Positions 1-49,663 of a stretch of DNA of 64,000 nucleotides are shown piece after piece. The notes beneath the pieces are model-generated. The model was given only the letters and a program-made list of their open reading frames with translations, did no database searches and had not been told where the DNA came from. Origin of the DNA: a virus (lineage: Duplodnaviria > Caudoviricetes). Made by a program: the position numbers and the translations under genes. The stretch lies in the IMG/VR virus record IMGVR_UViG_3300047159_000046; one strand, written 5' to 3'. Position 1 is the stretch's first letter, and every line of letters starts with the position of its first letter.

Positions 1-186
1 CCTTTTGTCATTTGAATCATAATCCAAATCGAGCCAGTCTGCATCCATTTGTTCTTTTCTCGTGTTGGTAGGAAGGCCAAATTTCTCATGCCAAGATTCT
101 GTTCTATAATCTTCATTGATGGCCTGATTGACAGCGTTTCTAATTATGTTATGGAGCTGTCCCTCTGTTAATCTTACTCTTCTCAT
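1..186 (-). CDS. Putative internal head (cargo) protein with MRRVRLTE leader; runs off the window edge
   Basis: Manual translation MRRVRLTEGQLHNIIRNAVNQAINEDYRTESWHEKFG...; leader nearly identical to the gene at 28202-28534; TATTTAT motif at 206-212. Confidence 0.8.
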   Translation of the reverse strand, partial: MRRVRLTEGQLHNIIRNAVNQAINEDYRTESWHEKFGLPTNTRKEQMDADWLDLDYDSNDKR

Positions 187-282
187 ATTGTTATTCTTTT
201 TAAATATAAATAGCAATATGAATAAAAAAAGGAAGATTTAATAAAAATCTCCCTTTTAAGCAAATGAACACTGAATTATATA

Positions 283-1452
283 TTATTCATCAGATGATGT
301 ATTTTCCTCCTCGAAACGGACTTCACTGGCTTCAAAATTGCTATTGTTGGCTTCATTCATCGCCTTTACAATATTCAACAGATGCGTTTTCTTATAAGCA
401 TCAAGATTTTCTGGAGCGATAATTCCATCACTTACACAATCCATTCTTCCCTCCGCAGAAGCATTAAATGGTTTGTCAAGTTGGTTTTTATCAATCTTTA
501 TTCTTGTTTCTGTTCCATAATTATACTTGACACCTCCACAAACAGCATTGAGCTTTGATATTGCAGATTTAGACTCTCCTCCAACCTTGATAATAAGTCT
601 TGCTGCAAACGATAATGATTCTCCGTTAGTAAGAACCATAGTCGGATGTCCCATACTTCCCATGTTATCATTCCAAACTTTGTTTACAAAGAACATGGTA
701 TCTGTATATTTTGAACTTACATATCTTGTTAATCCCAATTTGAGCAATATATCTGTAAATGATGCTTTTAATTGAGCTGCGTCACGCATATTCTGTTTAC
801 TCTTTGCCAAAAAAGATTCATAACTTTCAACCGATCCGACACTATCCCATATAAACAAAATATCTCTATCCAGTTCACCGTTACTCTGGGCGTTTAAAAA
901 TCTTCTTATACATTCTGCAACATCTTCTATTACAGGTATATCTCTTTTTTCTTTGGTCTTTGATGCTCCTGTTCTATCGGCATAATTTATATCACCATAA
1001 AGATTGATAAGATCATTATTTCCGACATACACAAAATCTCCTTCCCAATGTGTTATTTCATTTGTTGTAACTTCTTTAACCTCTCCTGTTTCTGGATCAA
1101 CCACAGATCTTTTTACATCACCATAAACAGGTTCAGCTTTCATTCCAAAACTCCTTGCATAAGTAAAAGAAAAATTTCCCTCCGTATCTATAATGACTGG
1201 AAGAACATTTTTCTTTTGCGCTCCAACAATAGCAGCACAAACCAAAGAAGACTTACCCGTATTCGTATGTCCTCCAACCAATGTCAAAATACCTTCTGGA
1301 ATTCCAGGAAGTTTTGTTGCTTTGACAAAACCATCAGACATTGTTATCCAAGAAAGTTCTTTTAATGCTTGATCTCCAAGAGATGCCTTGAAATTAGCTA
1401 AAAATGAAGATGAACTTGCAGAATCTTTTTTCTTTATTGCTTGTTTAGCCAT
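283..1452 (-). CDS. uvsX: RecA/UvsX-like recombinase
   Basis: Walker A GHTNTGKS, IIDTEG, FIWDSVGS, KIDKNQ; host-type promoter TATCTTTG near 1477-1484. Confidence 0.9.
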   Translation of the reverse strand: MAKQAIKKKDSASSSSFLANFKASLGDQALKELSWITMSDGFVKATKLPGIPEGILTLVGGHTNTGKSSLVCAAIVGAQKKNVLPVIIDTEGNFSFTYARSFGMKAEPVYGDVKRSVVDPETGEVKEVTTNEITHWEGDFVYVGNNDLINLYGDINYADRTGASKTKEKRDIPVIEDVAECIRRFLNAQSNGELDRDILFIWDSVGSVESYESFLAKSKQNMRDAAQLKASFTDILLKLGLTRYVSSKYTDTMFFVNKVWNDNMGSMGHPTMVLTNGESLSFAARLIIKVGGESKSAISKLNAVCGGVKYNYGTETRIKIDKNQLDKPFNASAEGRMDCVSDGIIAPENLDAYKKTHLLNIVKAMNEANNSNFEASEVRFEEENTSSDE

Positions 1453-1544
1453 GAATCTTATTTTTTATGTTTGAAGCAAAGATATGTGTTTTTAACATAT
1501 ATTATTTCTTTTTAACAGATTTTTTTTGAAAATAAAATTCAAAT

Positions 1545-1574
1545 AAAAAAAGTGATGAATAACTCATCACTTTT
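1545..1574. terminator. Intrinsic terminator hairpin
   Basis: AAAAGTGATGA-ataac-TCATCACTTTT with A/T tails. Confidence 0.7.
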
Positions 1575-1598
1575 AAAACATTAAAAAAATAAGAATCG

Positions 1599-2846: not shown

Positions 2847-2915
2847 TTAAAACTAATTTACTAAAAAATAATACATTTTATTTTATTTGAAACAAATATA
2901 TTAAAAAGTTACTAT

Positions 2916-3160: not shown

Positions 3161-3220
3161 ACAGCAAAGATAGGGCAAAATATTCAGACTACCAAACTTT
3201 TTATCAATTATTATCATAAT

Positions 3221-4066: not shown

Positions 4067-4076
4067 AAAATAAACT

Positions 4077-4634: not shown

Positions 4635-4666
4635 GGTAAAGTGTTTTTAAGATAAATACTAACAAA

Positions 4667-5767: not shown

Positions 5768-5817
5768 TTCTTTATTTTTAAAAAACTTCTGCAAATATAA
5801 AACAAAAAATTCAAAAA

Positions 5818-6201: not shown

Positions 6202-6212
6202 GATTTAAATTT

Positions 6213-14522: not shown

Positions 14523-14529
14523 ATGAAAC

Positions 14530-14566
14530 AAAAAACCTGATAGAGTAAATTTCTATCAGGTTTTTT
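14530..14566. terminator. Bidirectional intrinsic terminator
   Basis: AAAAAACCTGATAGA..TCTATCAGGTTTTTT between convergent genes. Confidence 0.8.
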
Positions 14567-14596
14567 GTTTTTAAAGATAAAGTCTATTTGGTTATT

Positions 14597-14842
14597 TTAT
14601 TCTTCATCGTCATCAAACAACTGATAATCCTCATTAAACCAACCAAGTATTTTCACTATTTGGTCTTCTGACAGATATTCAAATAGATCATCAATCATTT
14701 TTGATGCGCCCAAACTATCTTTTACTTCCTGCCATTTGTCTATAACATCGGAATCGGTAGTTCCCTCGTTTACCATTCTTCTCATAGAGTTGTTTATAGC
14801 TCTATTGATTACAGATTCTGAAATTCTACGTTGTCTTCTCAT
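14597..14842 (-). CDS. Putative internal head (cargo) protein with an Arg-rich leader
   Basis: MRRQRRISESVINRAINNSMRRMVNE-G; TATTTAT at 14877-14883. Confidence 0.7.
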   Translation of the reverse strand: MRRQRRISESVINRAINNSMRRMVNEGTTDSDVIDKWQEVKDSLGASKMIDDLFEYLSEDQIVKILGWFNEDYQLFDDDEE

Positions 14843-14957
14843 AATATAAAAAAGTTAAAATTAATTTTATTTCTAAATAAATAGCAACAAGATATTGTTT
14901 TTATCATTTTTTGTATGTATCTTTGTAACTGTAAAACATAAAACAACTATTACTATT

Positions 14958-27051: not shown

Positions 27052-27156
27052 ATATATGCGTATACGGTATGTTTTTCGTGTAATTAACGAATTTCATACC
27101 TGAAAAATATCAATTTTTATAGATATATTATCTATTTATAATAAAAGTAAACAAAA

Positions 27157-28113
27157 ATGAGAAGAAGAAATTTAGACCGAATTATTGATGAGTGTATCAA
27201 TAGAGAGGTTATGAATAGTAGACGATATGCCAATAATTATGGATATATCGATGAGGGCTTTATGGATACCAGAATGGGAAAGGCCATGGGACGTGGAATA
27301 TCCAAAGCAGGAATGGGGATAGGAAATAGACTCTCAAAATGGGGAAACAGTCTGAGTAATGTAGCATCAAACTATGGAAGAAGATTTGCCAACACTGGAT
27401 CTAATGGAGGAAATCAGACAGGTAATCAACCTTCTTATCAAGAAAATCCACTTCCTACAGGCAATAATAACACCAATTATAATGATCCTGATGATGATGA
27501 CGAAGAAGAAATGACTAATCAGACAAATTCAGATAACGGTGCTAATTATGATGAGGAGGATACCGATAATAATCAAGCAGGTTCCGATAATGCTTCTAAT
27601 TATGATGAGGGTGATGATGATAATACTCAAGCAGGTTCCGATGATTATGGACAACCACAAGGAAATGCTAATGGTTACTCCAATGATGATGAAGATGATT
27701 ATGATGAAGATGATAATGACGCAGGTTATGGGGAAGCAGGGAATGTTGCTCCTCAGCAGCGAGTAAGAACACCAAGAGGACCTCGTATGACTCCAGATCA
27801 ACGCAAATATAAAGGAATGATCAGAAGGGTTGACAAAAATATACCTGTCATGGATCAGGATATAACAGATTTGACACACGATGGATATATCAATAGAAAT
27901 ATAGGTAATTATGCCATAAATGGTCTCAAAAAGGTTAAAAAGAATATTGATTTGGCCAATAATAGAAATATGGGAACGGAGAAAAGACAAAGAGCGCAAA
28001 GACAACCAGATTATCAACATATACAAGCAAGAAAATTTGAGCAGCAATGGCGTCAGCAGCAGAAAGCTAATCAAATGTCAAACAATCAAATGTCAGATTC
28101 AATGAGATGGTAA
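27157..28113 (+). CDS. Putative internal head (cargo) protein, low complexity (Asn/Asp/Gln-rich)
   Basis: MRRRNLDRIIDE..YIDE-GFMD leader; TATTTAT at 27133; internal NYDE.D.DN.QAGSD repeats. Confidence 0.7.
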   Translation: MRRRNLDRIIDECINREVMNSRRYANNYGYIDEGFMDTRMGKAMGRGISKAGMGIGNRLSKWGNSLSNVASNYGRRFANTGSNGGNQTGNQPSYQENPLPTGNNNTNYNDPDDDDEEEMTNQTNSDNGANYDEEDTDNNQAGSDNASNYDEGDDDNTQAGSDDYGQPQGNANGYSNDDEDDYDEDDNDAGYGEAGNVAPQQRVRTPRGPRMTPDQRKYKGMIRRVDKNIPVMDQDITDLTHDGYINRNIGNYAINGLKKVKKNIDLANNRNMGTEKRQRAQRQPDYQHIQARKFEQQWRQQQKANQMSNNQMSDSMRW

Positions 28114-28201: not shown

Positions 28202-28534
28202 TTATTGCATTTCTTTCAAGTGTTGAATTTCACTTGAAATACACTTAAAATAAGCCCATATATAATCTTTAATATATTGACCAAATTGTTCATTTTCGTT
28301 TTCCATTAATGATTGACTACTGTTTACTCCCATTTGTGCATATTGTTGAATAGAATCAATCAATTGTTGTTTCTGGTGCTGATTCTGCTGATCATTATCC
28401 ATTTGATCTTGTCCTTTACGAAAACCTTGATAAGCTCCTTTCATCTTATCCATAAAACCTTCGTTCAAGATATTATTGACAGATTCTCTTATTACATTGT
28501 GGAGCTGTCCCTCCGTTAATCTTACTCTTCTCAT
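28202..28534 (-). CDS. Putative internal head (cargo) protein with MRRVRLTE leader
   Basis: True start 28534 MRRVRLTEGQLHNVIRESVNNILNE-GFMDK; TATTTAT at 28553-28559. Confidence 0.8.
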   Translation of the reverse strand: MRRVRLTEGQLHNVIRESVNNILNEGFMDKMKGAYQGFRKGQDQMDNDQQNQHQKQQLIDSIQQYAQMGVNSSQSLMENENEQFGQYIKDYIWAYFKCISSEIQHLKEMQ

Positions 28535-28563
28535 ATTTTTATTTCTTTTCCTATAAATATCTG

Positions 28564-28595
28564 CAAAATTATGATAATTCGCCCCCCCCCGCAAA
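28564..28595 (-). promoter_or_regulatory. Bacteroidetes-type promoter with a G9 tract in the spacer
   Basis: TTTG-cGGGGGGGGGcgaattatca-TAATTTTG (20-nt spacer). Confidence 0.55.
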
Positions 28596-32814: not shown

Positions 32815-33200
32815 ATTCCATCCAACTTAGACAAATTATCATATCCAATCTGTTAGGAAATAGATATGAACTCAATGTATCTAATAGTGACAAACAGTCA
32901 AAATATTTTGAAAAAACGAATAGTGATAAATCGGAAAGGTATGTTGTGAGAGTTTCCAATCATTGCTCCAGCAAGTTGACATGGCAACAAAAATATTGCG
33001 GTAAGAATGACAACCACATTTACACTAACTGTTATGATATTGTTATATTTGAACCTGATATAGATGGAGTCCAAAAGTGCAATTTTAAAGATGAAAGATT
33101 CGTAGTTCAATATGTATATAATACAGTCAATAAAACCGAAAAAGAAATACGCAAATTTATTGACAGTATTAATTTTCATACCAAATTAATTAATTATTGA
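32811..33200 (+). CDS. Hypothetical protein with an RVSNH motif (polyvalent-protein-associated-like)
   Basis: SKYF..YVVRVSNH. Confidence 0.5.
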   Translation: MNSIQLRQIIISNLLGNRYELNVSNSDKQSKYFEKTNSDKSERYVVRVSNHCSSKLTWQQKYCGKNDNHIYTNCYDIVIFEPDIDGVQKCNFKDERFVVQYVYNTVNKTEKEIRKFIDSINFHTKLINY

Positions 33201-34116: not shown

Positions 34117-36009
34117 TTAACGGAACTCTGCGGTGCTCCAGCTTACCAAACCATCTACTCTGACATGGCCATAGTATTTGTTATTGATAAGTTTCTTTGC
34201 ATATCTTGTCATAATACCCTTAACTGGTGCGAAGTTAAATGGATTAGTCAAGGTAGGAGTCAACTGCAATGGAATATAAGGTGCGTAAACGTATCCTGTT
34301 TCAAGCAATGTGTTACCCTTATGACCAACTATAACTGAATATGATGGAGAATAAGAATCTACATATACCTGCAACTGGTTGTTCAACGAACCAATTCTCT
34401 CAATACCCATTGAATACTTATCACTTTCGGCTGATGCATCAGTTACATGGAAATACTCAAGGTTGTTCAGCAAACAAGAAACTTCAGGAGAAACTACGAT
34501 AAAGTTGGCTGCGCCAAGCAATGTAGATTTCTGAATCTGTGCTGAAATCTGGTTGATAGTTGTAAACAGCTCCTGATTCCAGTCCTTCTGGGTGTAGTTG
34601 GTTGAATAGCCCTTCAGATGCTTCCATCCGTTGGCATCAAATCTCAATGACCATGCACCTGCCTTACGAAGGTCTCTCAAAATCTCACGGTCTATCTCAG
34701 CACTAATCTGTTCAGAAAGCAATGAGGTTAACTCTGCCTCTGTATCAATATTATGGAATGCTGAAATATCCTGTTGCAACTCTGGTGACCATGTAGCTCT
34801 CAACTTACGCTCTGTAACAGAAATGGTAGTAGAAGACATATTGAATGAAACCTCACCAATCTCTGTCTCCAACTCCAATGAGTCGTAAGAACACCAAGCA
34901 ACTTCCAAGTTGTCTACAAACTTAGTATTAACAGCTGGATCTATTCCGATATATCCATCAGTTGTAAGAGCTGAAGTAGTAGGAACCATGGTATCAATCT
35001 CAATATACATCTCGCCATTAGCGTTACATACATTTGAATTGTATTCTACCAATCCTGCACCCCACTTGATAGGTTTGATATGAACAGGGAACTGTGCATA
35101 CTGTGCGAAAGCAGCGGAACCAGAAGTGTTTGCTGAAATGGCAGCCTTTGTAATTACCTTCAAAGATGCAAGGAATTCCTCAGTATCCTGCTCGTTTCCA
35201 TCAGGACCTGTAAGTTTACCAGTGTTGTAATTAGAGAATCCAGAAACTTTAAGAATAACCTTTCTAACTGTATTATCAATAGAAGATACCTCTATATCAG
35301 CTACTGTCATTGCTGATCCTGCTGTATTGGTAGCACTATAACCGCTTGCAGTAAGTCTAACCAATGTAGGTTTAACAGAAGCGATAGTAATCTTACCCTT
35401 TGAATTATCAAACAAACCATCATCATAGAACATATCATACAATGATTTTTGATAATTGACAGACAATCCATAAGGAGCTGCGGTAGTAAGAGCCGTAGGA
35501 ACAACCTCATCTGGAAGATAATATCTTGGCTCAATCTGACCTGCGTCAGTTCTTGAAGAAAGAACTCTTGAAGTTCTCTCGTATCCCATCATACCAGTAT
35601 GAGAGAATGTAGAACCATCTGGAATATATCCTTCAGGAGTTCCAGCAGGAATATTAGGAGTTCTTACAGTAGTAGTAGGGCTAATGAAGAATATTTTACC
35701 TACTGGCATGTTCATAGCCTGTACTGATACGATATCATTGGCGAGCAACTTAGAGAATACACGTCTAATGATAGGGAATACTACAGTCTGGAACTGTCCA
35801 CTCTGATCTGCAGAGTTTGCCTCAGACAATATCTTCTTAGCCTGGTTCTCGTACAGTGTAGAGATATTCTCTTTCAATGCACCTGTCAAACCGTTTGTAA
35901 ATCCGAGCTTATCCCATCTTTCAGAGATAATATTTCTTTGTTTACGTTGTTCGTCCAACTCTATGGTACCAACTTGGTTACTTCTTAACCAATCTGCGTT
36001 TCCAAACAT
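34117..36009 (-). CDS. Major capsid protein (T4 gp23-like) with a Ser/Thr/Ala-rich insertion
   Basis: FPIIRRVF..DIVSVQAM..PVG, RKLRATWSPEL.QD, EIDREIL, GYVYAPYIPL, GIMTRYA. Confidence 0.95.
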   Translation of the reverse strand: MFGNADWLRSNQVGTIELDEQRKQRNIISERWDKLGFTNGLTGALKENISTLYENQAKKILSEANSADQSGQFQTVVFPIIRRVFSKLLANDIVSVQAMNMPVGKIFFISPTTTVRTPNIPAGTPEGYIPDGSTFSHTGMMGYERTSRVLSSRTDAGQIEPRYYLPDEVVPTALTTAAPYGLSVNYQKSLYDMFYDDGLFDNSKGKITIASVKPTLVRLTASGYSATNTAGSAMTVADIEVSSIDNTVRKVILKVSGFSNYNTGKLTGPDGNEQDTEEFLASLKVITKAAISANTSGSAAFAQYAQFPVHIKPIKWGAGLVEYNSNVCNANGEMYIEIDTMVPTTSALTTDGYIGIDPAVNTKFVDNLEVAWCSYDSLELETEIGEVSFNMSSTTISVTERKLRATWSPELQQDISAFHNIDTEAELTSLLSEQISAEIDREILRDLRKAGAWSLRFDANGWKHLKGYSTNYTQKDWNQELFTTINQISAQIQKSTLLGAANFIVVSPEVSCLLNNLEYFHVTDASAESDKYSMGIERIGSLNNQLQVYVDSYSPSYSVIVGHKGNTLLETGYVYAPYIPLQLTPTLTNPFNFAPVKGIMTRYAKKLINNKYYGHVRVDGLVSWSTAEFR

Positions 36010-36060: not shown

Positions 36061-37608
36061 TTATAATTTTTCCATTCTATCCATCAAATCCAGACAAGCA
36101 TTCATGTCTTTCGATTCATAAATAGTTGTCGCTTTTGTATCAACAGATCTTTCAGCTATTGGCTTGTCTATTGATTCGTGTATATTTACAGGTTTCCGAT
36201 TTAGCGTTCTTTTAAGAGTATTGTACATCATCTTACTTTCCTGCAATGTTTTTGCCTTTGTCATCTGATTCAAAATATCCAACTTCTCATTCTGGGTTGT
36301 TGAATTTTCCGAAATCAATTTAATGGCATTTCCCAAATTAGCATTAAGAACAGATGCCTCATTCAATTTAGAATTGAATGAATGATTGGCAACTTTCAAC
36401 TTTTGCTCAAATATATTGAGTGCCTGTTTAAGTTTTCTGTTCTCATTGAAAATAGAATGGGCTTTACTCATGATTGTAGACTCATTAGTATTTCCGACAT
36501 AACGTCCGTTCTTGCTGATTTCGTGAGCTGTATGAGGAGGGTATTGCATTGTTTCTTCAGTTTCGGAATTCTTAACTCTGCTTCTTCTTACTCTGTTTCT
36601 TGCACCTCTTGTAAGTCCCTCTTCCAGTCCGCTTCCATCAACCATTGACGGAGTTTCATCTTCTGAATCGTCTATTTCATAGATTGCCTCTTCATTCTCC
36701 AGACCACACTTGCAATTACCATTTTTTCCGCAACCACACTTGTCATACGGAGTAGCTCTTCTCTGCAATTTGCTATAAGGTCTTGCGTTTCCGTGAGGAA
36801 CGCCAGCATCCCAATCGTTTCCTTGCTTCTTGTCCGAAGGCAGTGTCATTACGTCTTTTTTCTGATAATCATCAGTGTATCCGAGATTTTCCTGTAAATT
36901 CAACTCGTAAAGTTTTGATTCTTTCATCTTATTTCTTTTATTTGTCGAATTTTCATCACCATCGTCATCAAGTAATATTTCGGTATCATCATCATCGTCA
37001 TCATCTGGCTCAATGGTGAATGTAACCTCCTCTTCGGCGTCATCAGGTGCTGGTAAATTGCGCAATTTATCGTCATCGTCATCATCCAAATCGTCATCAC
37101 TATCTGCATGGTTGCCTTTTTCGGTAGGGATAATCACATACTCGGTATCATCATCAGTGTTGGTTACCTTGTACACATTATCGTCTTCCTGTTTAACGAC
37201 TATCTGGTCGCTGTCTTGAAGAATAGAGTATATTTTACCCATATCTTTGTCTTCTACATTACTGAAGTCATACTCTCCGTTCCCGATTTTGTATTTATCG
37301 AAGTCCTTCCATTCCTTTCCCTTGACGTCATCACTTTCGTTACCGTCACTTTCCTTATCCGAAGTCTCAGTGTCGTCATCATCGTCACTGTCAACATCGA
37401 AATTCGGGTCCTCGTCATCATCGGTTTGAGTATCTTTTACTCCTTTTCCCTTATCCTGTTTGGATTCGGCATTATCCTCATTGATAAGTTTAGATATATC
37501 ATCATATATAGCCTCCTTACTCAAATCCTTAATGATACTTCCAGAATTTTCTTTTAGTGTCTTGTTAATATCATTGAGTTCGTACAGGCTTTCTTTAAGT
37601 TCTTTCAT
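36061..37608 (-). CDS. Prohead core/scaffold protein
   Basis: Highly acidic, many I/L-x-E sites, located between protease and MCP; TATTTAT at 37643. Confidence 0.75.
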   Translation of the reverse strand: MKELKESLYELNDINKTLKENSGSIIKDLSKEAIYDDISKLINEDNAESKQDKGKGVKDTQTDDDEDPNFDVDSDDDDDTETSDKESDGNESDDVKGKEWKDFDKYKIGNGEYDFSNVEDKDMGKIYSILQDSDQIVVKQEDDNVYKVTNTDDDTEYVIIPTEKGNHADSDDDLDDDDDDKLRNLPAPDDAEEEVTFTIEPDDDDDDDTEILLDDDGDENSTNKRNKMKESKLYELNLQENLGYTDDYQKKDVMTLPSDKKQGNDWDAGVPHGNARPYSKLQRRATPYDKCGCGKNGNCKCGLENEEAIYEIDDSEDETPSMVDGSGLEEGLTRGARNRVRRSRVKNSETEETMQYPPHTAHEISKNGRYVGNTNESTIMSKAHSIFNENRKLKQALNIFEQKLKVANHSFNSKLNEASVLNANLGNAIKLISENSTTQNEKLDILNQMTKAKTLQESKMMYNTLKRTLNRKPVNIHESIDKPIAERSVDTKATTIYESKDMNACLDLMDRMEKL

Positions 37609-37678: not shown

Positions 37679-38875
37679 TTACAATAAAATTTTATTTATT
37701 CTTTCAAGTTTCTCTCTTATAGCCATATTATGCTTATCAAGAGAATAATCCTTGCTTTCTATATATTGTTGTAAATTATCCATATTGCAGTCAATATAGG
37801 ACCCTGGAGTACTTGGAGATGAAACAACATCCCAACAAATCAACTCATAATCATCACCAACAACCGTTGTTCCCATAATATCCTTTACAGATCCGACACC
37901 CCTTGAAGAAACTCCTATTTTGTAACCTCGTATGATAAGATTGGCAACCTGATCTCCACAGGTACATACGGTTCCATCCTGTATGAATTTATTTGACAGA
38001 AATATTTCCATCTGTCCTACAAGAGTATGTTCCTCCCAGTGCAATTCTGTTATCAAGTGTGATACCCTGCTAAGGTCTATACTTGAAGATTCTGGATGAT
38101 TGCAATTATGAGTCCAGTGGGGAACCATATCTGCATATTTGACATACCATGTATGGTTTTCCACTTCTGGACAATAAGTACTTTCCTTATAATCCTCAAG
38201 CGTTACTGTAAGATTTTCCACTTTGATATCATTATCAGATGGTTTTCCATCTTCTGAAATCTTGATATATAAATCATTATAATCAGCAGTAGTCATGATA
38301 TCAGATGCCATGACGGTACATACAAATTCACCCGTCTTTTTAAACAAAGGATATTTGTGTTTTAGGGTAACCGTATCTTTTATGTTTTTATTGTCTGATA
38401 TGGTTATCATATTGGAACAATCCTCTTTTTTTACCATTCTTTTAACAGGATTGTTCTCTACATTATTAGTATGCAGATTAAGAGTTTTGATAGAATCTCC
38501 CTCTTTGACCTCATCTATCCGTTTCCATGATCCGTCTGACATTTTTACCAACGCATCTGCAGGAAAACACTCTCCATAAGAGCTTCTTTCGTCTATAAGT
38601 TTCTGATACGCTATTACCTGCTGCTTCAAAGTCTCTTCTGGATATATTCTTCCATTGGCATTTTTGATACCATATTTTTGAAATACCGCATTAACTATGA
38701 ATGGCTGTGGAACATACCACTTGCCATTCCCATTTTCCATTCCTTCTTTCAGGTTTTTAGGAGCCATGATAGGACTTGTAGAAGATACTGAATTAGGCAA
38801 TACATACCCATCATTTTCAATCAACAATCCTTTTCCATACTGGCCTTTCTGTATTTCTGTTAAAATATGACTCAT
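37679..38875 (-). CDS. Prohead core protease (T4 gp21-like), intein-containing
   Basis: NANGRIYP, GE/CNHP, VSH, IGVSSRGVGS, WDVVSSPS. Confidence 0.93.
   Translation of the reverse strand: MSHILTEIQKGQYGKGLLIENDGYVLPNSVSSTSPIMAPKNLKEGMENGNGKWYVPQPFIVNAVFQKYGIKNANGRIYPEETLKQQVIAYQKLIDERSSYGECFPADALVKMSDGSWKRIDEVKEGDSIKTLNLHTNNVENNPVKRMVKKEDCSNMITISDNKNIKDTVTLKHKYPLFKKTGEFVCTVMASDIMTTADYNDLYIKISEDGKPSDNDIKVENLTVTLEDYKESTYCPEVENHTWYVKYADMVPHWTHNCNHPESSSIDLSRVSHLITELHWEEHTLVGQMEIFLSNKFIQDGTVCTCGDQVANLIIRGYKIGVSSRGVGSVKDIMGTTVVGDDYELICWDVVSSPSTPGSYIDCNMDNLQQYIESKDYSLDKHNMAIREKLERINKILL
38105..38569 (-). other. Mini-intein (155 aa, no homing endonuclease)
   Basis: Begins CFPADALV..GSWKRIDEVKEGD; block B VTLKHKY; ends TYCPEVENHTWYV..WTHN followed by C. 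Confidence 0.92.
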
Positions 38876-38909: not shown

Positions 38910-39833
38910 TCATTTTTTTATAAAACGTCTTATAATAGCTGCTCTGTTATTATTCACCAATCCGATGCTATGAACTCTGTTTATATTATTCCTGATAATC
39001 AACGGATTAAATCTTCTTGACGAAACATGTAAATAATCAACAGGAGTTTGTGAGATGTCGTATTTGTTGTTCCATACATAAGGATAACTATGGATATCAA
39101 AATGATTAAATAGAAACCATGCAGAACCAATACGCTCGGAGGTGAATCCGTTAAATCTTGCTTGGTCATTTCTATCCAATATAAGATATGGACTTTCTTG
39201 CTGGCATTTATCTGAATGATTCTTATAGTTTTTAGGAGTTATTCCGAATCTCTTGTCATGCTCGAACAGCAAACCGAACATAAAAGAGCAATATCTTTCA
39301 AAATTACCGACACTCATTATAAATGAATTCTTTCCATAAAACAAAGTGTTTTTTGTGTTGAAATACTCCTTGCAAAATTCATAGAAAGGTTTATCTGTAT
39401 CATGAATGATATCCATGTCCATATCGAAATCCTGATATAGATGGTCACTGTAATAACACCATCTAATGGATTTGACTCCATATCCCTCTTTGTTGAAAAG
39501 AATTATCTTTTGGTCGTTATCGAAATATTGGTCTGGATTGTGTAATATCATATCCGCATCATTTCCGAAATCAAACCAACGTCTGTAATGACAGAAACCA
39601 ACATATTTTAGATTCGGATATAATCTTTTATAGTTTTTCCAAACCCAGTATATGGCTGTCAATTCACAGTAATAACAATTCCTATCACTTATATTATCTC
39701 CTGTATTGTCTTTCAAAGGACATAAATCCATATCCTTATGAAGTTCTGCTCCTACCTGAATAGGAACAAAGGTGTCATTGTCCTTAATTGATACATTGTG
39801 TGTCGGAACAAAAATTTTAAGTATTTCACTCAT
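38910..39833 (-). CDS. DUF4422-family glycosyltransferase (galactofuranosyl-transferase-like)
   Basis: PIQVGA..DNTGDNIS..N.YYCELTA.YWVWKN..VGFCHYRR..SER. Confidence 0.85.
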   Translation of the reverse strand: MSEILKIFVPTHNVSIKDNDTFVPIQVGAELHKDMDLCPLKDNTGDNISDRNCYYCELTAIYWVWKNYKRLYPNLKYVGFCHYRRWFDFGNDADMILHNPDQYFDNDQKIILFNKEGYGVKSIRWCYYSDHLYQDFDMDMDIIHDTDKPFYEFCKEYFNTKNTLFYGKNSFIMSVGNFERYCSFMFGLLFEHDKRFGITPKNYKNHSDKCQQESPYLILDRNDQARFNGFTSERIGSAWFLFNHFDIHSYPYVWNNKYDISQTPVDYLHVSSRRFNPLIIRNNINRVHSIGLVNNNRAAIIRRFIKK

Positions 39834-40218: not shown

Positions 40219-41181
40219 TTATTTTGTTGGTTGTTCTATCAATTCTTTCATATCAAGAAGTATAGCGACCTGTTCTGTAATATTGTTTTCCTCAAATTCC
40301 ATTTTGTTCAACTTATCTTCCAACTCCTTGATAAGATTTATATTCTCCTCACTTACATCATCTCCTTTAAGCAATTCATGTATCAGATGCTGATTGTTTT
40401 CTTTTAATTTTTGGAAAATTGCTTTTTTCTTTGGCTTATCTTCATCTTTGTCGGATTTCAATGTCTGCAGAATTTGCTTTTCCGATTTATCCATTTTTGA
40501 ATGTTTCTTGTTGAATTTGTCAATCATTACACATACACTGTTTCGTTTTTCCTCCGTGTCTTTATCTTCCTTCTTGTCTTTTGAGTGCTGTTCAATATAT
40601 TTGGCAATTTTACTTTTGTTCTCATATAGAGATGCTATTTTAAGAACATCCATATCATGATTTATAACATTCTGGCAACTTTCATAAAAAGCCATTCTTT
40701 CTGGATTAATCATATCCTCATCAATGGTAATCTTGTATTTCTTCATGAAATTAACCATCTTGTCGTTTGATTCATTAATGGTCTTAGGATTTATTTCCTT
40801 TTTAATACGTTTAGTGACCTCGTCTATAAAACCTTTTGAATCTCCTATTGTTTTATTGTAGGTATCAATAGCGTCAAAAAATTTATTTTCGGACACAAGA
40901 TTTTTGTCTGATTTCATCATGGAAATATAATCAGCAATAGGTTTTTTGTTCTCTTTCAAATATTCAGAAGAAACATACTTTTTGATGGCATTGTTCATAA
41001 CACCAAATGTTTTTGATGGATTCTCAAAATATTCATTTACCCGTTTTGCCTCCTCGAATAAAGCATCCGCTTTTTCCTTGTGTTTGGTTGCCTCGTATAA
41101 ATCATTATTTCCTATAGCCTGTGACATTTTGGATATCTCATTCATCCACTGTGTCTTAAAATTCTTGTCTATTTTCATCAT
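40219..41181 (-). CDS. Putative prohead core protein
   Basis: Charged helical protein directly downstream of the portal gene. Confidence 0.6.
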   Translation of the reverse strand: MMKIDKNFKTQWMNEISKMSQAIGNNDLYEATKHKEKADALFEEAKRVNEYFENPSKTFGVMNNAIKKYVSSEYLKENKKPIADYISMMKSDKNLVSENKFFDAIDTYNKTIGDSKGFIDEVTKRIKKEINPKTINESNDKMVNFMKKYKITIDEDMINPERMAFYESCQNVINHDMDVLKIASLYENKSKIAKYIEQHSKDKKEDKDTEEKRNSVCVMIDKFNKKHSKMDKSEKQILQTLKSDKDEDKPKKKAIFQKLKENNQHLIHELLKGDDVSEENINLIKELEDKLNKMEFEENNITEQVAILLDMKELIEQPTK

Positions 41182-43283
41182 TTCAGTTTCTTTTTTATAT
41201 TTTTTAGTTCTTTTTCTATATCATTAAACTCTTCGTTAATTGCAAAATTCTTATTATAAATAGGTTTTCTTTTTACAATAGTTTCTCCAATCTTTCGTTT
41301 TTTGTTATCACTGGATGATTGTATGCTTTTCATCCAATCCTTGTAAATGATATTTTCCAAATTGTCCTCATCAATATTGATATCCTCATTAATCAAAGGC
41401 TTATTGCTTTTCTTTCCCTCTTGTGGTCCTGCTGCCATTTCATCTGCTGGACTCGCTTCTTCTGGAGGCATTTCTCCTTCTTCTCCTTCTGCTCCTGCGG
41501 GACCTCCGCCCATATCTGGGCCTCCACCCATTTCTGGGCCTCCTCCCATATCTGGCATTCCGCCTCCGAAGTCTCCTCCTCCGCCTGGCATGCCTCCTTC
41601 TTCTGGTCCTCCTTGACCAGAGTCTCCTCCTTGTGCTCCATCCTCATCCTGATATTTGGCATTAGGAATTCCAAGTTCACGGTCAACCTTATCAAATATT
41701 CCTGTACGGGTAATAATCTGATTTGTTTTCTTTAATTCCTCTGACAAGGCTCTCTCTTTTCTTATTTCAAGCCAATTTTCCTCAATATCCTTATCAGACA
41801 TTTTCAACACTTTTTTAAGTGCCTGCTCCATTGACAGAATAGGAATACCGACTCCAGGGTCTGCACAACAATCTCTTATGATGCTGACCTTTTTCTGCAT
41901 TGTTTCAACCTCCATTTGTTCCGCTTGTGTGGAAGGGTTGTTCATGGTCAATGTAAAATTGGTTAAATCATCAAGAAATCCCAATAGATATAGGTGAATG
42001 GTTGCGACTTTTGTCAGTTCCTCCAAAAAAGCCTGTTGCATGCGGTTTATCTTTCTGGTGAATCTGATATCCATCATTGCGAGATTCTGTCCATTTCCCG
42101 CTGCTTGGTCAAAATTAAGAAATTCCTTTGGAACCTCCAAACCAGTCAATACCTTGCTTTGTACATATTTTATATCATCAAGTGCGGTCATGTTTTGTCC
42201 TGCTGTAAGATTCTCTACAGAATCGGCAGCATTGGCATCTCTAAACGGAATGAAATAATCATCTGTATTTGATAATATATTTTTTCTAAGGTCAATCTGA
42301 CCTGTCATAGGATCTACAATTTGAGTACGTTTTACCCTGTTAGCAAATTGCTGAATATAAGCAGGAACATCTTTCGGATCAATACCTCCAACGTAAAGTT
42401 TATATATTCGTCTTTCCATTGATCGGTCCAGTCTGTATATCAGCATCATATCTTCCATAAGTGACAACATTCTCCAGTGTCTTCTGGCTTTATGCAGATA
42501 ACTGCATCCATAAGGCAAAAAAGAGCAGTCGGTAAGAAGTCTAAAATGTGCAATTTGCCAATTTCTATATGGTTTTACCGTGTTATCTCCACATGTCCAT
42601 GCGAATTTAACCTCATTGCTGTCCTTATCTGTTTTTCCTATATTGTTATATACAGTAGAGGCATTCAACGCTCCTGTACTTACAGTAGCATTTCCCTCTA
42701 TTCTTTCAACCTGTGTCACGGGAAGCTGTCTCCAACCAGTAATTCCATCTTCCGAATTCATATTCATGCAATAGAACTGATTTCCATATTTGGCGGTTCC
42801 TCTTATTATCATTGCAGCAACTGAATTAATCTGCAATCTATTAGTGAACAAATCCTCCAAAATTGTTTTTACCCTATCAGATGATGAATATACATGAACT
42901 ATATTTCCATTATCATCTGGCAAAACGCTCTCTTCTGCAAGAATATCAAGTGCTGCCCCTATTTCAGGAAAACCATCCATCATATCCACATCCCTATACA
43001 TAAGGGCCATTCTATTCAGGTTGTTAAGATTTTCCGCATCAAGAGCCTTTCCAGTGTTTCTCCACATCGAGTCCAGAAACTGGTCCTGTTTCGCTGTTTT
43101 GAAAACCTTGTCATATTCCGCTTTATCAGTGGTCTTGAACAGAATTTTCTTATCATCATCCGTTAATTGATATGATTTAAGTCCGTTAGTGCCACCAAGT
43201 GTATCCTTGTCTTTCCCCCAATTGTTTTTTATCGCATTGTTGAGTCTCTGAAATATACTTTGATTTTTATCTTGTTCAGACAT
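41178..43283 (-). CDS. Portal protein (T4 gp20-like) with a Gly/Pro/Met-rich C-terminal extension
   Basis: PEIGAALDI, MEDMMLIYRL.R..ERRIY, DDYFIP, DDIKY, DIRF. Confidence 0.93.
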   Translation of the reverse strand: MSEQDKNQSIFQRLNNAIKNNWGKDKDTLGGTNGLKSYQLTDDDKKILFKTTDKAEYDKVFKTAKQDQFLDSMWRNTGKALDAENLNNLNRMALMYRDVDMMDGFPEIGAALDILAEESVLPDDNGNIVHVYSSSDRVKTILEDLFTNRLQINSVAAMIIRGTAKYGNQFYCMNMNSEDGITGWRQLPVTQVERIEGNATVSTGALNASTVYNNIGKTDKDSNEVKFAWTCGDNTVKPYRNWQIAHFRLLTDCSFLPYGCSYLHKARRHWRMLSLMEDMMLIYRLDRSMERRIYKLYVGGIDPKDVPAYIQQFANRVKRTQIVDPMTGQIDLRKNILSNTDDYFIPFRDANAADSVENLTAGQNMTALDDIKYVQSKVLTGLEVPKEFLNFDQAAGNGQNLAMMDIRFTRKINRMQQAFLEELTKVATIHLYLLGFLDDLTNFTLTMNNPSTQAEQMEVETMQKKVSIIRDCCADPGVGIPILSMEQALKKVLKMSDKDIEENWLEIRKERALSEELKKTNQIITRTGIFDKVDRELGIPNAKYQDEDGAQGGDSGQGGPEEGGMPGGGGDFGGGMPDMGGGPEMGGGPDMGGGPAGAEGEEGEMPPEEASPADEMAAGPQEGKKSNKPLINEDINIDEDNLENIIYKDWMKSIQSSSDNKKRKIGETIVKRKPIYNKNFAINEEFNDIEKELKNIKKKLK

Positions 43284-43310: not shown

Positions 43311-45161
43311 TTATTTGTTCTTTTTAGTAAATAACCAAAGAAAAGGATTGTTATCATCATTGCCCTCATTACCTCTTGATGGCAATTCGTAAAACATTGA
43401 CGGGCTTTCACTTTGTGTATTGTTGTTATTCAATTCTCTTGATGTTGTGAACGCTTGCAACATTGAAATATTGCTGTCTTTTAATTCAAGCTGTTTGTTG
43501 ATAGAATATTCCATTACAAACATACCCATTGCCAAACAGGTTATGGTATCATCGTGCATACCTTTCATGTGGTCCATTCTTCCTGTCGATTCCTTGAATA
43601 CCCATGTTTCCAATTCATTTATAACACGCTGGGAGCGTATCTTATAAGCATTTTCTTTCAGCATTGTGGCAAATTTTGACAACATCTGAAATCTTACACT
43701 GGAAGAATGAAATCCAGGAAGTTTCCCCGATGTTGATTGAATTGACATATACTCCAAGTTGTCCTGTGTATAATCTTTCAATGTCCCGTCATCATAATAC
43801 AAATTCTTATATCCCAAAGAACGCATTTTTAACGCACATGGATCTCCGACACCTCCTACGCAGTCAATGACCGTATAAGCCTCATTATATAACATTCCAT
43901 ATTTAAACGCCAATTCTCCGATTTCATCTCCTGGCTTTTTACCATGATATTCCATCACCTGTTCTATTATTGGCATCCCGTTCTCGTCAATACCGTCTTC
44001 ATCTGTTATTTCTATTGCTGTTCTATCGGCAGCATCTCCCCTTGAACAGTCTATTGACATTATATATCTATGTCCTGCTATTGGAGCTTTCCAAAACCAT
44101 GTTTCTGGTATTGTGGGGTCCTTTAGTGTTTCAAGCGGTTCTCTTACATTCAGGTTTCTCTGCATCTCTATTATATCTGGAGGAACAACATTGTTTGCAG
44201 AACCCAAGAAAGAGACATCCAACTCTTGCGCAATCATTATTTCGTTGTTATTGAAACTTTTGCACATATCTGTGTACCATTTGGAAATAGGCTTCCACCC
44301 ATCCTCCTCCATCTTTTTCCAATGGGCTTCATTATATTCTATAGATCCAGAAGCGTCTATGGTCTTTTCCTTGTAGTACTCCTTTTTGTGTGATACCTCA
44401 TTAGGTTTGTACCACATTAAATTTTTGTTATATCTTGGGTCCTGAAACCACTTGAATTCCACTGCATTGAATCCATTTTCGTGTGCAAGAGCCTGTTTGT
44501 AAGTGGAATAATAAAGTTCGTCTTTACCATTAGGGGTTGAAATCATTATAGTCCTTGCGTTTTTGACAGATGAAGTGGTAGCCACGGCAGAACCATAAAC
44601 TTTTACTCCATCCTCTATAAACGCAGCCTCATCAAAAACGAGAATAGATGCCGCAGAAACTCCTCGTGATGCATCTTTACCTGATGAACGGGCATATACC
44701 ACACTTCCGTTAAAAAGTTCTATCTGTGATTTGTTTTGTTTGACATATATGCTTTTCTTGTTTTTAGGATTTGTGGGATCTGGATCATAATATTTATCCC
44801 CCCATATCCATCTTGGAATCCCGTCAAGAAAAGTTTTTACCCTCACCAAAAACAATTGTGACAAGTCAAGTTTATTAGCTATACACAATACCGTTTCTGG
44901 GTGTTCCTTGCTTGAAAAAGCAATTTGTGCTGTTGCCCATGCAGCAGTCGTAGTGGTAATACCTGCCTGTCTTGGCTTGATGGCTATGGTGTTTCTATAA
45001 GAAGCCAAACTCTGCAGAAAAGCCTTTTGTCTTGGAAAAAGTATGAATTCATGCTCTCCCTCTGTTGTGGCATCGTATGTTTTTAAAAAATGTTCAATAA
45101 AAAATATTCTGCTTTTATCTACAAAAGCCTTTTTATATAAATCTATTTGTTCTAAAGTCAT
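43311..45161 (-). CDS. terL: Terminase large subunit
   Basis: LFPRQ, KPRQAGITT, VFDEAAF, ISTPNG, QEL..SFLGS, IDCSRG, HDD. Confidence 0.95.
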   Translation of the reverse strand: MTLEQIDLYKKAFVDKSRIFFIEHFLKTYDATTEGEHEFILFPRQKAFLQSLASYRNTIAIKPRQAGITTTTAAWATAQIAFSSKEHPETVLCIANKLDLSQLFLVRVKTFLDGIPRWIWGDKYYDPDPTNPKNKKSIYVKQNKSQIELFNGSVVYARSSGKDASRGVSAASILVFDEAAFIEDGVKVYGSAVATTSSVKNARTIMISTPNGKDELYYSTYKQALAHENGFNAVEFKWFQDPRYNKNLMWYKPNEVSHKKEYYKEKTIDASGSIEYNEAHWKKMEEDGWKPISKWYTDMCKSFNNNEIMIAQELDVSFLGSANNVVPPDIIEMQRNLNVREPLETLKDPTIPETWFWKAPIAGHRYIMSIDCSRGDAADRTAIEITDEDGIDENGMPIIEQVMEYHGKKPGDEIGELAFKYGMLYNEAYTVIDCVGGVGDPCALKMRSLGYKNLYYDDGTLKDYTQDNLEYMSIQSTSGKLPGFHSSSVRFQMLSKFATMLKENAYKIRSQRVINELETWVFKESTGRMDHMKGMHDDTITCLAMGMFVMEYSINKQLELKDSNISMLQAFTTSRELNNNNTQSESPSMFYELPSRGNEGNDDNNPFLWLFTKKNK

Positions 45162-46312: not shown

Positions 46313-46313
46313 G

Positions 46314-46667
46314 TTATTGATTATTGTTTGATGATATTTTTACGTTATATCTGGTATTAGGATTGCTTGCAACGGTCGCATATTTCTGTTTGAGCTGATT
46401 TATCTGCGACTGTGCGTCTTGTGCATCTGTTGCGGTAACGTCAAAGTTTGCTCCGTTATTTGATTTGTCTCCGTCTATCTGATTACCTGTAAATGTAAAA
46501 TCCTTTTCTCCGTTTGCGTCTGGCTTGACAGAATTGTTGTTTATCGCAGTGTTTATTGAAGTGGCAATATTGTTTGTGGAGGAAGGTGCTGGGTTGTATC
46601 CTGCTTCGTCCTCGGTCATTATCTGCAGATATTTTCTAAACTGTCTTTCTGTTAAAATTATTTTCAT
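46314..46667 (-). CDS. Putative internal head protein with MKIILTE leader
   Basis: MKIILTERQFRKYLQIMTE-DE; TATTTAT at 46685. Confidence 0.7.
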   Translation of the reverse strand: MKIILTERQFRKYLQIMTEDEAGYNPAPSSTNNIATSINTAINNNSVKPDANGEKDFTFTGNQIDGDKSNNGANFDVTATDAQDAQSQINQLKQKYATVASNPNTRYNVKISSNNNQ

Positions 46668-46750
46668 TATGTGTAATTTTTATAATAAATAGTAAAAGGT
46701 GAACAGAAATTAATCTGTCCACCTTTTATTGATAATTGTTTATTTTATCA

Positions 46751-47299
46751 TCAGCTGAAAGGGGAATTTTTGTGTCTGCTTTTATAGGCCTCTTTCGAGG
46801 TATATGGGCAGCGCATCTTGTTTCTGTCTTTCATCGAGTTGCTGGTATTGCCAAACTCCTCGCTGATTCCCCTTTCAATAGATTCTCCCAATGGCGGGTT
46901 ACCATTGGAACCATTATCGTTCATATTGTCATTCATACCGTTCCCCATATCATCGCCACCTTCATCTTCCATTCCTCCGTCTTTCAGTGCTTTTATGATT
47001 GATTTCTTGCTATTGGCATTCAATACATTTGAGCCTGCCGAATTAATCATTTTCAAAGCCCATGTGGCGGTTTCGTTGGCATCCGATGGATCAGCTTCTC
47101 CAAGATAGTTTCTTAGCTCACTGGCTAATTTTCCTGTTTGCTTCTGAATTGATTTCTTAGGGTCCATCTCATCCTCGCCATCCAAATCAGCATTGTTTCC
47201 CATATCTGGTCCCATATTTTCATCTGGCATCATAGGAGGCTGCTGATTATCCATGGCTGGAGGTTCTGGCATAAGATTCGGTTCTGGACCAAAATCCAT
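46751..47299 (-). CDS. Pro/Met-rich putative head protein; frame stays open upstream to the A9 tract at 47365-47373
   Basis: Upstream in-frame TLLNLTEKKHKVLALPQKEEPQ with no start codon. Confidence 0.6.
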   Translation of the reverse strand: MDFGPEPNLMPEPPAMDNQQPPMMPDENMGPDMGNNADLDGEDEMDPKKSIQKQTGKLASELRNYLGEADPSDANETATWALKMINSAGSNVLNANSKKSIIKALKDGGMEDEGGDDMGNGMNDNMNDNGSNGNPPLGESIERGISEEFGNTSNSMKDRNKMRCPYTSKEAYKSRHKNSPFS

Positions 47300-47355
47300 T
47301 TGTGGCTCCTCTTTTTGAGGGAGGGCAAGAACCTTATGCTTTTTTTCGGTTAGAT

Positions 47356-48603
47356 TTAATAACGTTTTTTTTTATTTGAAAAACGGCTTTCGTTGAAAAA
47401 CTTTCTTCCGTTAGGTCTAACACTAAATGGAGCCTTGTATTCCTGGTTATCACTTCCGTAAGGAGTTTCATTCTCTACACTTGAATCGTCCCACTGGCGA
47501 GTGTTTTTATAGCCTCTTTTTCTTGCTGGAAGTGTAAATGGCTGTCTTCTGTATGCAGGATGTTTTCCCCAGAATTGTTCCTCGTTGATAGCTCTGCCTC
47601 TTCTTCTAAAACTCTCCTTTTTGACTGGTTCCTCATCCTCATCTCCTTCTTCACTCTCGTCATCACCCTCTTCATTGTCATCATCATAAAGATCGTCATC
47701 GTCAAACTGGTCCTCATCAGAATCATCAAGTATGATTTCTATTTTCTTTGTGTCTGGAGATACATGGAATGTCTCGGTATCATCATCGAATTCATCGGTA
47801 TCGAAATCGTTATCAGCATCATCTGTATCCTCCATATCACCTGTCAAGTCGTTCTCGTCATTGTAATCCTTATCAAGATTAATGTCCTCGTCATCATCGT
47901 CATCGTCATCAACATCTCCCCAGTCCTCATTATCCTTTGCAGCCTCTTTTATATTGGCTACGATAGAACCTTTGCAGCATCCTTTTGAGAATGGCTTGAA
48001 TGAGCTATGTGTTCCTTTGCGTTTAGGCTTTCCGTCTTTATCAAACGCTTCTGAATCAGTGTCTGCTATGCTGAATGGAGCTGCCTTTGCCTTGTTCTTT
48101 TTGGTTATTTCCTTGGCTTCCGATATGGTCTTTGCCTTATGATATCCCTCGTCTATTTCAACGGATTTGTTCATTATTTCAAGCTGTCTTTTAACATCGC
48201 CCTCGGTACCTCTCTTTGCCTCTATAATAGCGGTTTTGTTATGTGATTTGTCTGCTCCCTCAATAATAGTACAGTTGGCCTCGTAAGCCTCTTTCAAAGA
48301 TGCCATTTTGCCCTCAAACTTTCTAACTGCTGCTGCATAAGATGAAAAAGAGTTTTTGTTTCTGTTTACAAATCCTCCGATGTAGTCAAAATCTTCCTTC
48401 AAAGGTTTCTTGTTTCCAGTCTTTGCCATTTTGATATAGAAATTGGATCCCTCTCTGACTATTCCGTAATAGTTTCCGTCTGGACCCTTGGAAGCATATT
48501 CCACAGGGTCAGTAGCGTTTTTCTTGCTTTCAGATATAGTATTTGAGGAATTCATCAATTCCTGCATACGCTTTACTGTTTTATCTACAATATTATTCAT
48601 CAA
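47356..48603 (-). CDS. Acidic putative prohead core/internal protein
   Basis: DGNYYGIVRE..YIK..FDYIGG, FWGKHPAY; about ten I/L-x-E sites; TATTTAT at 48640. Confidence 0.7.
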   Translation of the reverse strand: MMNNIVDKTVKRMQELMNSSNTISESKKNATDPVEYASKGPDGNYYGIVREGSNFYIKMAKTGNKKPLKEDFDYIGGFVNRNKNSFSSYAAAVRKFEGKMASLKEAYEANCTIIEGADKSHNKTAIIEAKRGTEGDVKRQLEIMNKSVEIDEGYHKAKTISEAKEITKKNKAKAAPFSIADTDSEAFDKDGKPKRKGTHSSFKPFSKGCCKGSIVANIKEAAKDNEDWGDVDDDDDDDEDINLDKDYNDENDLTGDMEDTDDADNDFDTDEFDDDTETFHVSPDTKKIEIILDDSDEDQFDDDDLYDDDNEEGDDESEEGDEDEEPVKKESFRRRGRAINEEQFWGKHPAYRRQPFTLPARKRGYKNTRQWDDSSVENETPYGSDNQEYKAPFSVRPNGRKFFNESRFSNKKKRY

Positions 48604-48666
48604 TTAATAATTTTTATATCTTATTTTGTTTTTTTAATAATAAATAGTAAGTTATTTTGTAAATAA

Positions 48667-49447
48667 TCAATTATCTACTGCATAGGAAAAAACTTTATCA
48701 AAAACCTTATCGGACAAATCCCATAATTTTTCCAAATATCCATTCCGTTTTATGGATTTATAAATTATATTGGCTTCATCCATTTCCCCTTTTCTTGATA
48801 ACCCTTTCTTCCTTAGATTGATAAGATTGTCTATCAGCTTGTTTACATCATCATACAGCTCTGGATAATTGTCTGTATGGTTATATACCGTTTCCATATT
48901 GTCAATAATGGTTTCTATATCAGCAACGGTAGCTTTTATCTTTCCAGCATCAATATCCGCATCGTTTATTTTGCTTTTGTCTGGTTTTTTTCAGCCACTT
49001 GTTGTCCATTAATGAATAAACTCCTTCTGAATCGATATCAGAATCTATGTCCTGAACATATATCTCAACAGGAACGCCATTGATGTTCAGATTTTCATGG
49101 GCATTGTTCCATTCTCTGCTGGTTGATTTATAGTATTTTTCAACAAATTCCTTATTCTTATCCAGTTTGCTAAAATCAACTATTATATGCAAATCAAGGT
49201 CTGAGTTTTCATTCCAATTATAGTTGCATGACGATCCTATTAAAAGTATATCTTCTGGGTCATCATTATATCCATTATCTTTCCAATAAGCATCAAAAAT
49301 ATCTATCAGTTTTTCCCTAATACCTTTTTTGAGCTTTTCGCCATTCCATATACTTGGATTGAGTTCTTCTTTCGGTGTGAATGAACTCAAATTTATTTCA
49401 TCTGCGTTTACTTCGTCTATTATTTCATTTAATAATGATGATGACAT
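48667..49447 (-). CDS. Nucleotidyltransferase (Pol-beta superfamily), split by a +1 frameshift at 48985-48991
   Basis: LIGSSCNYNW..SDLDLH and VEIYVQD; removing one A joins ..WLKKPDKSKINDADIDAGKIKATVADIETIIDN to ORF 48667-48897. Confidence 0.8.
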
Positions 49448-49663
49448 TGTGGTAGCTTTTGTTTATAAATAGTAGTATAATTAAGTTTGAATATGATGTC
49501 AAAACACGTCTGTTTAATAGGGACACAAAAAAGAGCCATTATTGAACATAACGGCTCTTAATTTCTGCTGATGGAATATCATACATTAATTGAATATCTT
49601 AATGTATGCGTAAGCAAATAGAAAAATGAAAATAAATAATTTTTTTTAAATAAAAAGTAATGT

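Follow-up and report, generated by a model that had tools for sequence, protein, structure and literature searches.

The 64,000-nucleotide (nt) stretch of viral DNA analyzed here (the window; IMG/VR record IMGVR_UViG_3300047159_000046, G+C content 34%, 65 genes counted) carries two genes, A and B, whose products start with nearly the same 25-residue peptide, hereafter the leader, and continue into different proteins, the cargos. Three further genes, C, D and E, have N-termini that are leader-like only. An earlier sequence-only reading of this DNA, the initial annotation, had listed all five open reading frames (ORFs), and we recovered each of them in place, with N-terminal sequences and translations as written. 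It had also noted the sequence TATTTAT just upstream of each gene, which was correct for all five, at distances of 24-41 nt. The genes, their TATTTAT copies and a hairpin are as follows.

Gene A: 1..186, minus strand, 3' end cut by the window start; leader in codons 1-25 (112-186), MRRVRLTEGQLHNIIRNAVNQAINE; TATTTAT at 206..212, minus strand, in the context TTGCTATTTATA, 26 nt upstream of the start.
Gene C: 14597..14842, minus strand, 81 residues; leader-like N-terminus at 14765-14842, MRRQRRISESVINRAINNSMRRMVNE, with an acidic cargo; TATTTAT at 14877..14883, minus strand, TTGCTATTTATT, 41 nt upstream.
Hairpin: 14526..14570, minus strand, terminator-like with a 19-bp stem, just downstream of C.
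Gene D: 27157..28113, plus strand, 318 residues; leader-like 33-residue N-terminus (27157-27255) ending YIDE, then GFMD like B; TATTTAT at 27133..27139, plus strand, ATCTATTTATAA, 24 nt upstream.
Gene B: 28202..28534, minus strand, 110 residues; leader at 28460-28534, MRRVRLTEGQLHNVIRESVNNILNE, with a helical, Q-rich cargo; TATTTAT at 28553..28559, minus strand, within TTTGCAGATATTTATAGG, 25 nt upstream, the same block standing before two leader paralogues in near-identical phages.
Gene E: 46314..46667, minus strand, 117 residues; short leader-like N-terminus at 46611-46667, MKIILTERQFRKYLQIMTE; just upstream of gene g384 and the large terminase gene; TATTTAT at 46685..46691, minus strand, TTACTATTTATT, 24 nt upstream and directly after a hairpin.

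The canonical leader of A and B reads MRRVRLTEGQLHN(V/I)IR..(I/A)(L/I)NE, and the two N-termini have 20 of 25 residues in common. Their DNA is near-identical at the start and then diverges, as had been pointed out: identity was 90% in the first 48 nt, 80% for the 75-nt leader as a whole, 31% past codon 25 and 33% upstream. A leader profile built from the clade (described below) scored A and B at 50-54 bits (50 for A), with E-values between 1e-12 and 1e-18 in a search of the six-frame ORFs of 1.6 Mb. C, D and E reached ~3 bits each, no better than other N-termini, and their similarity to the profile is therefore not significant. The leader initially assigned to five proteins thus holds for two of them, and judged by the profile A and B are the only firm members of the family within the window. 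AlphaFold2 modelling of B from 10 sequences (mean predicted local distance difference test score, pLDDT, 51) indicated helix propensity only, with a break at the NE|GF junction; in this low-confidence model the leader helix spans residues 8-24. Directly upstream of the promoter block of B, at about 28580-28592, lies a G9 run (GCGGGGGGGGGCG), and contigs from wastewater runs vary by small insertions and deletions around 28541-28586.

With B as the query, 96 proteins were retrieved, most of which match in the first 25 residues only, at 92-100% identity, before continuing into at least four different bodies. In 80 related contigs we found 70 unique leader ORFs no more than 10 kb away from the capsid gene, and these gave the clade consensus MKKxIRLTESDLHxIVKESVxRILxE. 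Information content was 2-4 bits per position through the terminal Glu and at most 1 bit from the next residue onwards, with a drop from 3.6 to about 1 bit immediately past the Glu of (I/V)(L/I)xE. The leader is a discrete peptide module, and its conservation stops exactly at the (I/L/V)xE site. The cargos behind it are diverse, as 68 of them fell into 41 BLASTP clusters, so the leader is spread over unrelated proteins rather than belonging to one orthologous family. This was the expectation of the initial annotation, and it was further borne out by a profile search of 1.84 billion representative proteins (50% identity), where 8,974 proteins matched with E <=0.001 and 1,551 with E <=1e-10. A degenerate DNA pattern of the leader matched this same set of large IMG/VR contigs.

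The genomes that carry the leader are T4-like jumbo phages of 220-413 kb. Whole records of relatives held 12, 10, 8, 7 and 0 copies, scattered over the genomes; copies were also enriched next to head genes, in the position of T4 gp67 and gp68, and near-identical phages have two tandem leader genes amid methylase and ThyX genes. Many of the top profile matches bear 2-4 leader copies per ORF. Across 290 copies, N-terminal and internal, the third-last residue of the leader (P3) was L, I, V or M and the last (P1) was E in ~95%. In relatives, the ORFs with 2-4 copies, each ending LxE, have a polyprotein-like layout (L083:537-2486; proteins P0129, P0135, P0143 and others).

Little of this family is recognised by existing annotation. 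When 66 leader proteins were scanned, two had a Pfam match and three a PHROG match, and with 10 large representatives added the matches were confined to a WG repeat, RelB-like, InPase and a weak HNH. No anti-defence or takeover domain was recognisable in the cargos scanned against Pfam and PHROG. Pfam and PHROGs hold no family for the leader itself, and its peptide strings were not found in the literature searched; the family is thus unannotated despite its size. A feature search of the ESM Atlas was uninformative (scores <0.8). Scanning 185,579 species genomes with a consensus-leader protein as the query gave a single 4-kb contig of a metagenome-assembled genome, and this sole match provides no host link.

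Across the clade the leader residues are kept while the codons vary: Leu is written with six codons, Ser with both TCN and AGY, and at positions with the same residue only 47-51% of codons are identical. This free synonymous change argues that selection acts on the peptide. In the lineage of the window, paralogues have leader DNA of at least 90% identity, and B and two paralogues in near-identical phages have the block TTTGCAGATATTTAT..AAAAT-ATG in common, whereas the upstream DNA of A and B is unrelated save for 7-9 nt, the motif. The portable promoter-plus-leader DNA cassette that had been proposed therefore describes B and its two paralogues but not A. In four RNA-library runs, contig depth over 28412-28545 was ~10x that of the flanks and the contigs part at 28460-28500; as assembled contigs, these display a shared leader and divergent cargo, and neither transcription nor 5' ends. 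The near-identical paralogue leader DNA, the shared block and the divergence of the contigs make recent duplication or recombination through the leader plausible in the lineage of the window, and concerted evolution of its leaders is likewise plausible. The deep conservation is not due to such exchange. Strong concerted evolution within the genomes of large relatives was considered and rejected, as amino acid identity was 62% within versus 58% between genomes and codon identity 51% versus 47.5%.

The head genes of the window include a prohead protease of the T4 gp21 type together with a T4-type portal and capsid protein, which agrees with the context assumed in the initial annotation.

Large terminase: 43311-45161, minus strand; ~25% identity to T4-like and Flavobacterium myovirus terminases.
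T4-type portal (Portal_T4): 41178-43283, minus strand; PF07230, 1e-84; low-complexity C-terminal extension.
Prohead protease of the T4 gp21 family (Peptidase_S77): 37679-38875, minus strand; PF03420 4e-15, phrog_207 2e-31, PDB 5JBL 1e-5.
Very acidic protein of 515 residues in the scaffold (gp22) position: 36061-37608, minus strand.
Major capsid protein of the Gp23 family: 34117-36009, minus strand; PF07068, 1e-69.

We presume that the gp21-family protease is the enzyme that removes the leader, and that the scaffold is the core that the leader would join. In T4, internal head proteins carry N-terminal capsid-targeting sequence (CTS) propeptides of 10-20 residues, and gp21 sites of the (L/I)xE form include ITE-6 and LTE-619 in Alt (PMC5694885). 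In this clade the capsid protein has two conserved sites, (I/V)KE|N (residue 47) and L(L/I)xE|A (residue 63), the latter just before the conserved mature N-arm, and the N-terminal helical segment of the scaffold, ~44 residues long, ends KLINE|D (KLLSE|D in relatives) before the acidic tract. The agreement of the leader, capsid and scaffold sites with the protease is one of sequence only. A complex prediction of the scaffold with the leader scored 0.01 and carries no weight either way. A Hint/intein insert (PF01079, PF14623) splits the protease at about residues 103-257. Proteases of relatives are either intein-free, with 232-244 residues, as at L056:7689-8402, or ~606-residue forms with larger inserts.

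The leader genes also have their upstream motif in common with head and lysis genes. The window contains 64 copies of TATTTAT; the motif lies within 70 nt upstream of 18 of the 65 genes, usually as TTRCTATTTAT at -20 to -46. Besides A-E it precedes 13 genes, including those for the protease (22 nt upstream) and the scaffold, g414, g165 and the lysis operon (endolysin 60997-61521). Given these other genes and the number of occurrences, it is a general promoter-like class and not, as had been suggested, specific to a cassette. TTRCTATTTAT is absent from the replication genes; instead, a Bacteroidota-like TAnnTTTG is found before replication genes (9105, 12047, 56498, 57171 and 59167), including the helicase and the 394-residue gene 59167-60351, which by eye we take to be clamp-like. 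In relatives, (G)ATATTTAT was present at -21 to -42 in 37 of 66 leader genes. TTRCTATTTAT fits a late promoter class common to leader and head genes. Sigma-70-type promoters showed no enrichment in the window (69 versus 76 expected). A conserved 240-residue protein without a family match (21893-22615) could be a late transcription factor.

Genes C, D and E possibly carry divergent variants of the leader. Four of the 65 window genes begin MRR, where 0.08 would be expected (P = 1.5e-6), and D and B have the junction EGFMD..MGKA in common (IDE-GFMD..MGKA versus LNE-GFMDKMKGA, E = 0.01), after which D has a long acidic low-complexity body and then a basic tail. Small genes of relatives that are syntenic with E, upstream of the g384 orthologue, have similar short N-termini, e.g. 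MKSIHITEEQLAQLKERITE in contig L056, although the alignment is weak. The g384 orthologue in L056 has itself an additional leader-like N-terminus of 21 residues that is missing from g384 of the window, and the peptide therefore behaves as an add-on. Homologue searches with C and E returned near-identical relatives only, and hence no bridge to the canonical leader. The promoter-like motif and the 3' hairpin of C suggest that this gene is transcribed alone.

Taken together, our results make us lean, with modest confidence, towards the leader being a prohead-targeting propeptide that is removed by the S77 protease, i.e. a longer analogue of the T4 CTS. Many small late proteins would be made with the same 25-residue helical N-terminal peptide, which would recruit them into the assembling scaffold core of a T4-like prohead. 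The gp21-family protease would then cut after the terminal Glu of (I/V)(L/I)xE and free the cargo inside the head, where it would stay with the DNA and could leave together with it at infection. Core binding, cleavage, virion retention, injection and any effector function are steps that we infer. More tentatively, the one 25-residue tag may be the general capsid-loading signal of the whole uncultured 220-413 kb jumbo clade (wastewater and other metagenomes), marking thousands of unrelated families as packaged and injected, including polyprotein-like precursors cut by the protease; we are inclined to doubt a claim of this breadth.

Several observations weigh against a CTS-like propeptide. No sequence likeness of leader or cargo to T4 internal proteins or to the CTS was established (66 proteins in Pfam and PHROG; tblastn in 50,697 phage records), and megablast and tblastn searches of INPHARED with the window, gene B and a two-copy leader protein gave no match. 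The leader has 25 residues as compared to 10-20 in T4. [ILVM]xE is a common tripeptide, so the sites in capsid protein and scaffold are weak evidence when taken alone. Internal copies, and the 2-4 copies in single ORFs, also fit a reusable binding helix, and ES[KRN], a possible excision site, stands just upstream of only 20% of the internal copies (background 4.7%). Many cargos are short, acidic or of low complexity, which would be in keeping with effectors and with accessory proteins of the core or scaffold alike. Finally, the 'basic amphipathic' character first ascribed to the leader is weak, with a net charge of ~+1 in the window and a hydrophobic moment showing no clear excess over shuffles.

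Targeting and cleavage could both hold and the cargos still be core, scaffold-accessory or DNA-condensing internal proteins like T4 gp67, gp68 and gp22, serving the assembly and size control of a very large capsid, with many of them degraded or retained and no injected effectors among them. The clustering of leader genes between portal and scaffold in many relatives, which is the place of T4 gp67/gp68, speaks for this, as do the many short, acidic or low-complexity cargos, the likewise acid-rich scaffold, g414 and g182, and the near lack of recognisable cargo domains. Nevertheless, the extreme diversity of the cargos (41 clusters from 68 cargos; ~9,000 clusters overall) and their dispersal among non-structural genes are more typical of accessory or arms-race proteins, and some cargos look globular, with WG repeat and RelB-like matches; we consider this explanation a serious one, but unlikely. 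A different possibility is that the leader is kept uncleaved and the LxE is incidental. The helix would then drive oligomerisation or bind one common partner other than the prohead core, such as a phage or host protein, a chaperone, a nearby glycosyltransferase or the tail/ejection machinery. Internal copies and repeats within ORFs, the low-confidence helix at residues 8-24 and the six glycosyltransferase-like genes around the structural module speak for such a role. It is at odds with the abrupt stop of conservation at the Glu, the near-invariant (L/I/V/M)xE ending of N-terminal and internal copies alike, the similar sites at the propeptide boundaries of capsid protein and scaffold, and the presence of a gp21-family protease, and we regard it as rather improbable.

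The conserved stretch might also act mainly as nucleic acid, either as an RNA element in translation initiation or regulation or as a recombination site passed on together with its promoter, with the peptide secondary. Within the window's phage lineage this would account for paralogue leader DNA of at least 90% identity, for the block of promoter, 5' untranslated region and leader common to B and two paralogues, and for wastewater contigs that stack on the 75-nt leader and part at its end. The clade-wide retention of residues with free codon change (47-51% identical codons) argues for the peptide, however, as do the unrelated upstream DNA of A and B save for 7-9 nt and the internal copies far from any start codon, and we give a nucleic-acid role very little credence.

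Relatives of the capsid protein were found on 255 IMG/VR contigs, many of them 220-413 kb long, and a 241,508-bp contig carries the exact protein C, which identifies the source of the window as an uncultured T4-like jumbo phage. None of 50,697 deposited phage genomes matches the window closely, and its DNA is also present in wastewater and bioreactor-sludge runs from 12 studies. The capsid protein (630 residues) aligns to T4 gp23 at residues 72-163 and 385-604 only, which implies an extra mid-protein domain of roughly 200-270 residues. The C-terminal extension of the portal, ~190 residues, includes a Gly/Met/Pro-rich low-complexity tract as well as the sites LINE and AINE. Six glycosyltransferase-like genes, which may glycosylate DNA or virion proteins, are interspersed among the structural genes:

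Glyco_tranf_2_5: 17440-18279, Pfam match.
Glycos_transf_2: 21005-21817, Pfam match.
DUF4422: 38910-39833, Pfam match.
Glycosyltransferase-like genes judged by eye alone: 30204-31172, 31216-32814 and 33194-34024.

Elsewhere in the window, a near-identical pair of 533-residue TnpB/Cas12f-like ORFs (PF07282, OrfB_IS605) lies in opposite orientation at 15560-17161 (minus strand) and 50467-52068 (plus strand), and a third copy was found in a near-identical phage (L096:6432-8033). Small ORFs at 50091-50461, adjoining the second copy, resemble recombinase fragments. An 872-residue ClpB/ATP-dependent-protease-like gene at 53790-56408 (minus strand; phrog_4871, 3e-134) has the TATTTAT motif upstream.

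Were the leader to prove a capsid-loading tag, the packaged and perhaps injected proteins of a large uncultured group of jumbo phages could be listed by a simple profile search, and the ~9,000 tagged clusters, with almost no known domains, would offer plentiful candidates for anti-defence or host-takeover factors. The T4 CTS principle would then also apply in a deep clade, with a tag that is much longer, better conserved and multi-copy, and the proteolytic maturation of very large T4-like heads could be described by testable rules. Should the tag be a general loading signal, it would provide both a catalogue, obtained from sequence, of candidate injected counter-defence or takeover factors and a ready tag for packaging foreign proteins.

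The principle of a loading tag is already established for T-even phages. The T4 CTS is carried by diverse internal proteins (PMC3012670), and the CTS of IPI-III and Alt and the polymorphic internal protein loci of T-even phages were described by Mullaney and Black 1996 and Repoila et al. 1994, as cited in PMC3012670, PMC2839356 and PMC5694885. At these loci >30 variants are flanked by conserved regulatory sequences (PMC2839356, citing Repoila et al. 1994). In the system described here, as with the T4 CTS, the head module is T4-type and includes a gp21-family protease, otherwise unrelated small proteins (in the window, A and B only) begin with a short peptide ending (L/I)xE, and a promoter-like motif is common with head and lysis genes. 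As in the T-even internal protein genes, highly variable cargos are combined with conserved regulatory or leader sequences at variable loci. In contrast to the T4 CTS, the leader is far more strongly conserved, across a deep clade, is present in 7-12 or more copies dispersed over genomes of 240-410 kb instead of at two internal protein loci, and also occurs internally and in tandem within ORFs. As far as the comparisons go, the leader family is an analogue, not a homologue, of the T4 internal protein family.

The jumbo phages phiKZ, 201phi2-1 and SPN3US likewise have many head-internal proteins processed after Glu (PMC5694885, PMC7411985, PMC10052503). Their precursors can have several cleavage sites, and diverged paralogues can have identical N-termini, as in SPN3US gp53 and gp54, which differ elsewhere (PMC5694885). 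However, these phages have an S80-type protease, an (A/S/G)xE motif, propeptides of mostly >100 residues and small paralogue families, whereas in our clade an S77 protease goes together with an LxE ending, and a single short tag is found on thousands of cargo families. The protease of the window matches S77, and the leader has L, I, V or M at P3 in place of A, S or G. Another parallel is given by the PeSLs of T4-type phages, where variable small genes stand between short conserved promoter/terminator blocks through which modules may be shuffled, but PeSLs are early-promoter stem-loop DNA elements that encode no shared peptide (PMC2839356). In the phages studied here it is a peptide that is conserved, and the promoter-like motif belongs to head and lysis genes in general. 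The encapsulin cargo-loading peptide is a short tag, usually C-terminal and uncleaved, that binds the HK97-fold shell protein directly. It directs diverse cargos into an HK97-fold shell, as we propose for the leader, but is not known to be related to it in sequence. What is new is a 25-residue tag without match to known phage families, its depth of conservation, its scale and dispersal, its tandem and internal copies, and its presence in an uncultured jumbo clade.

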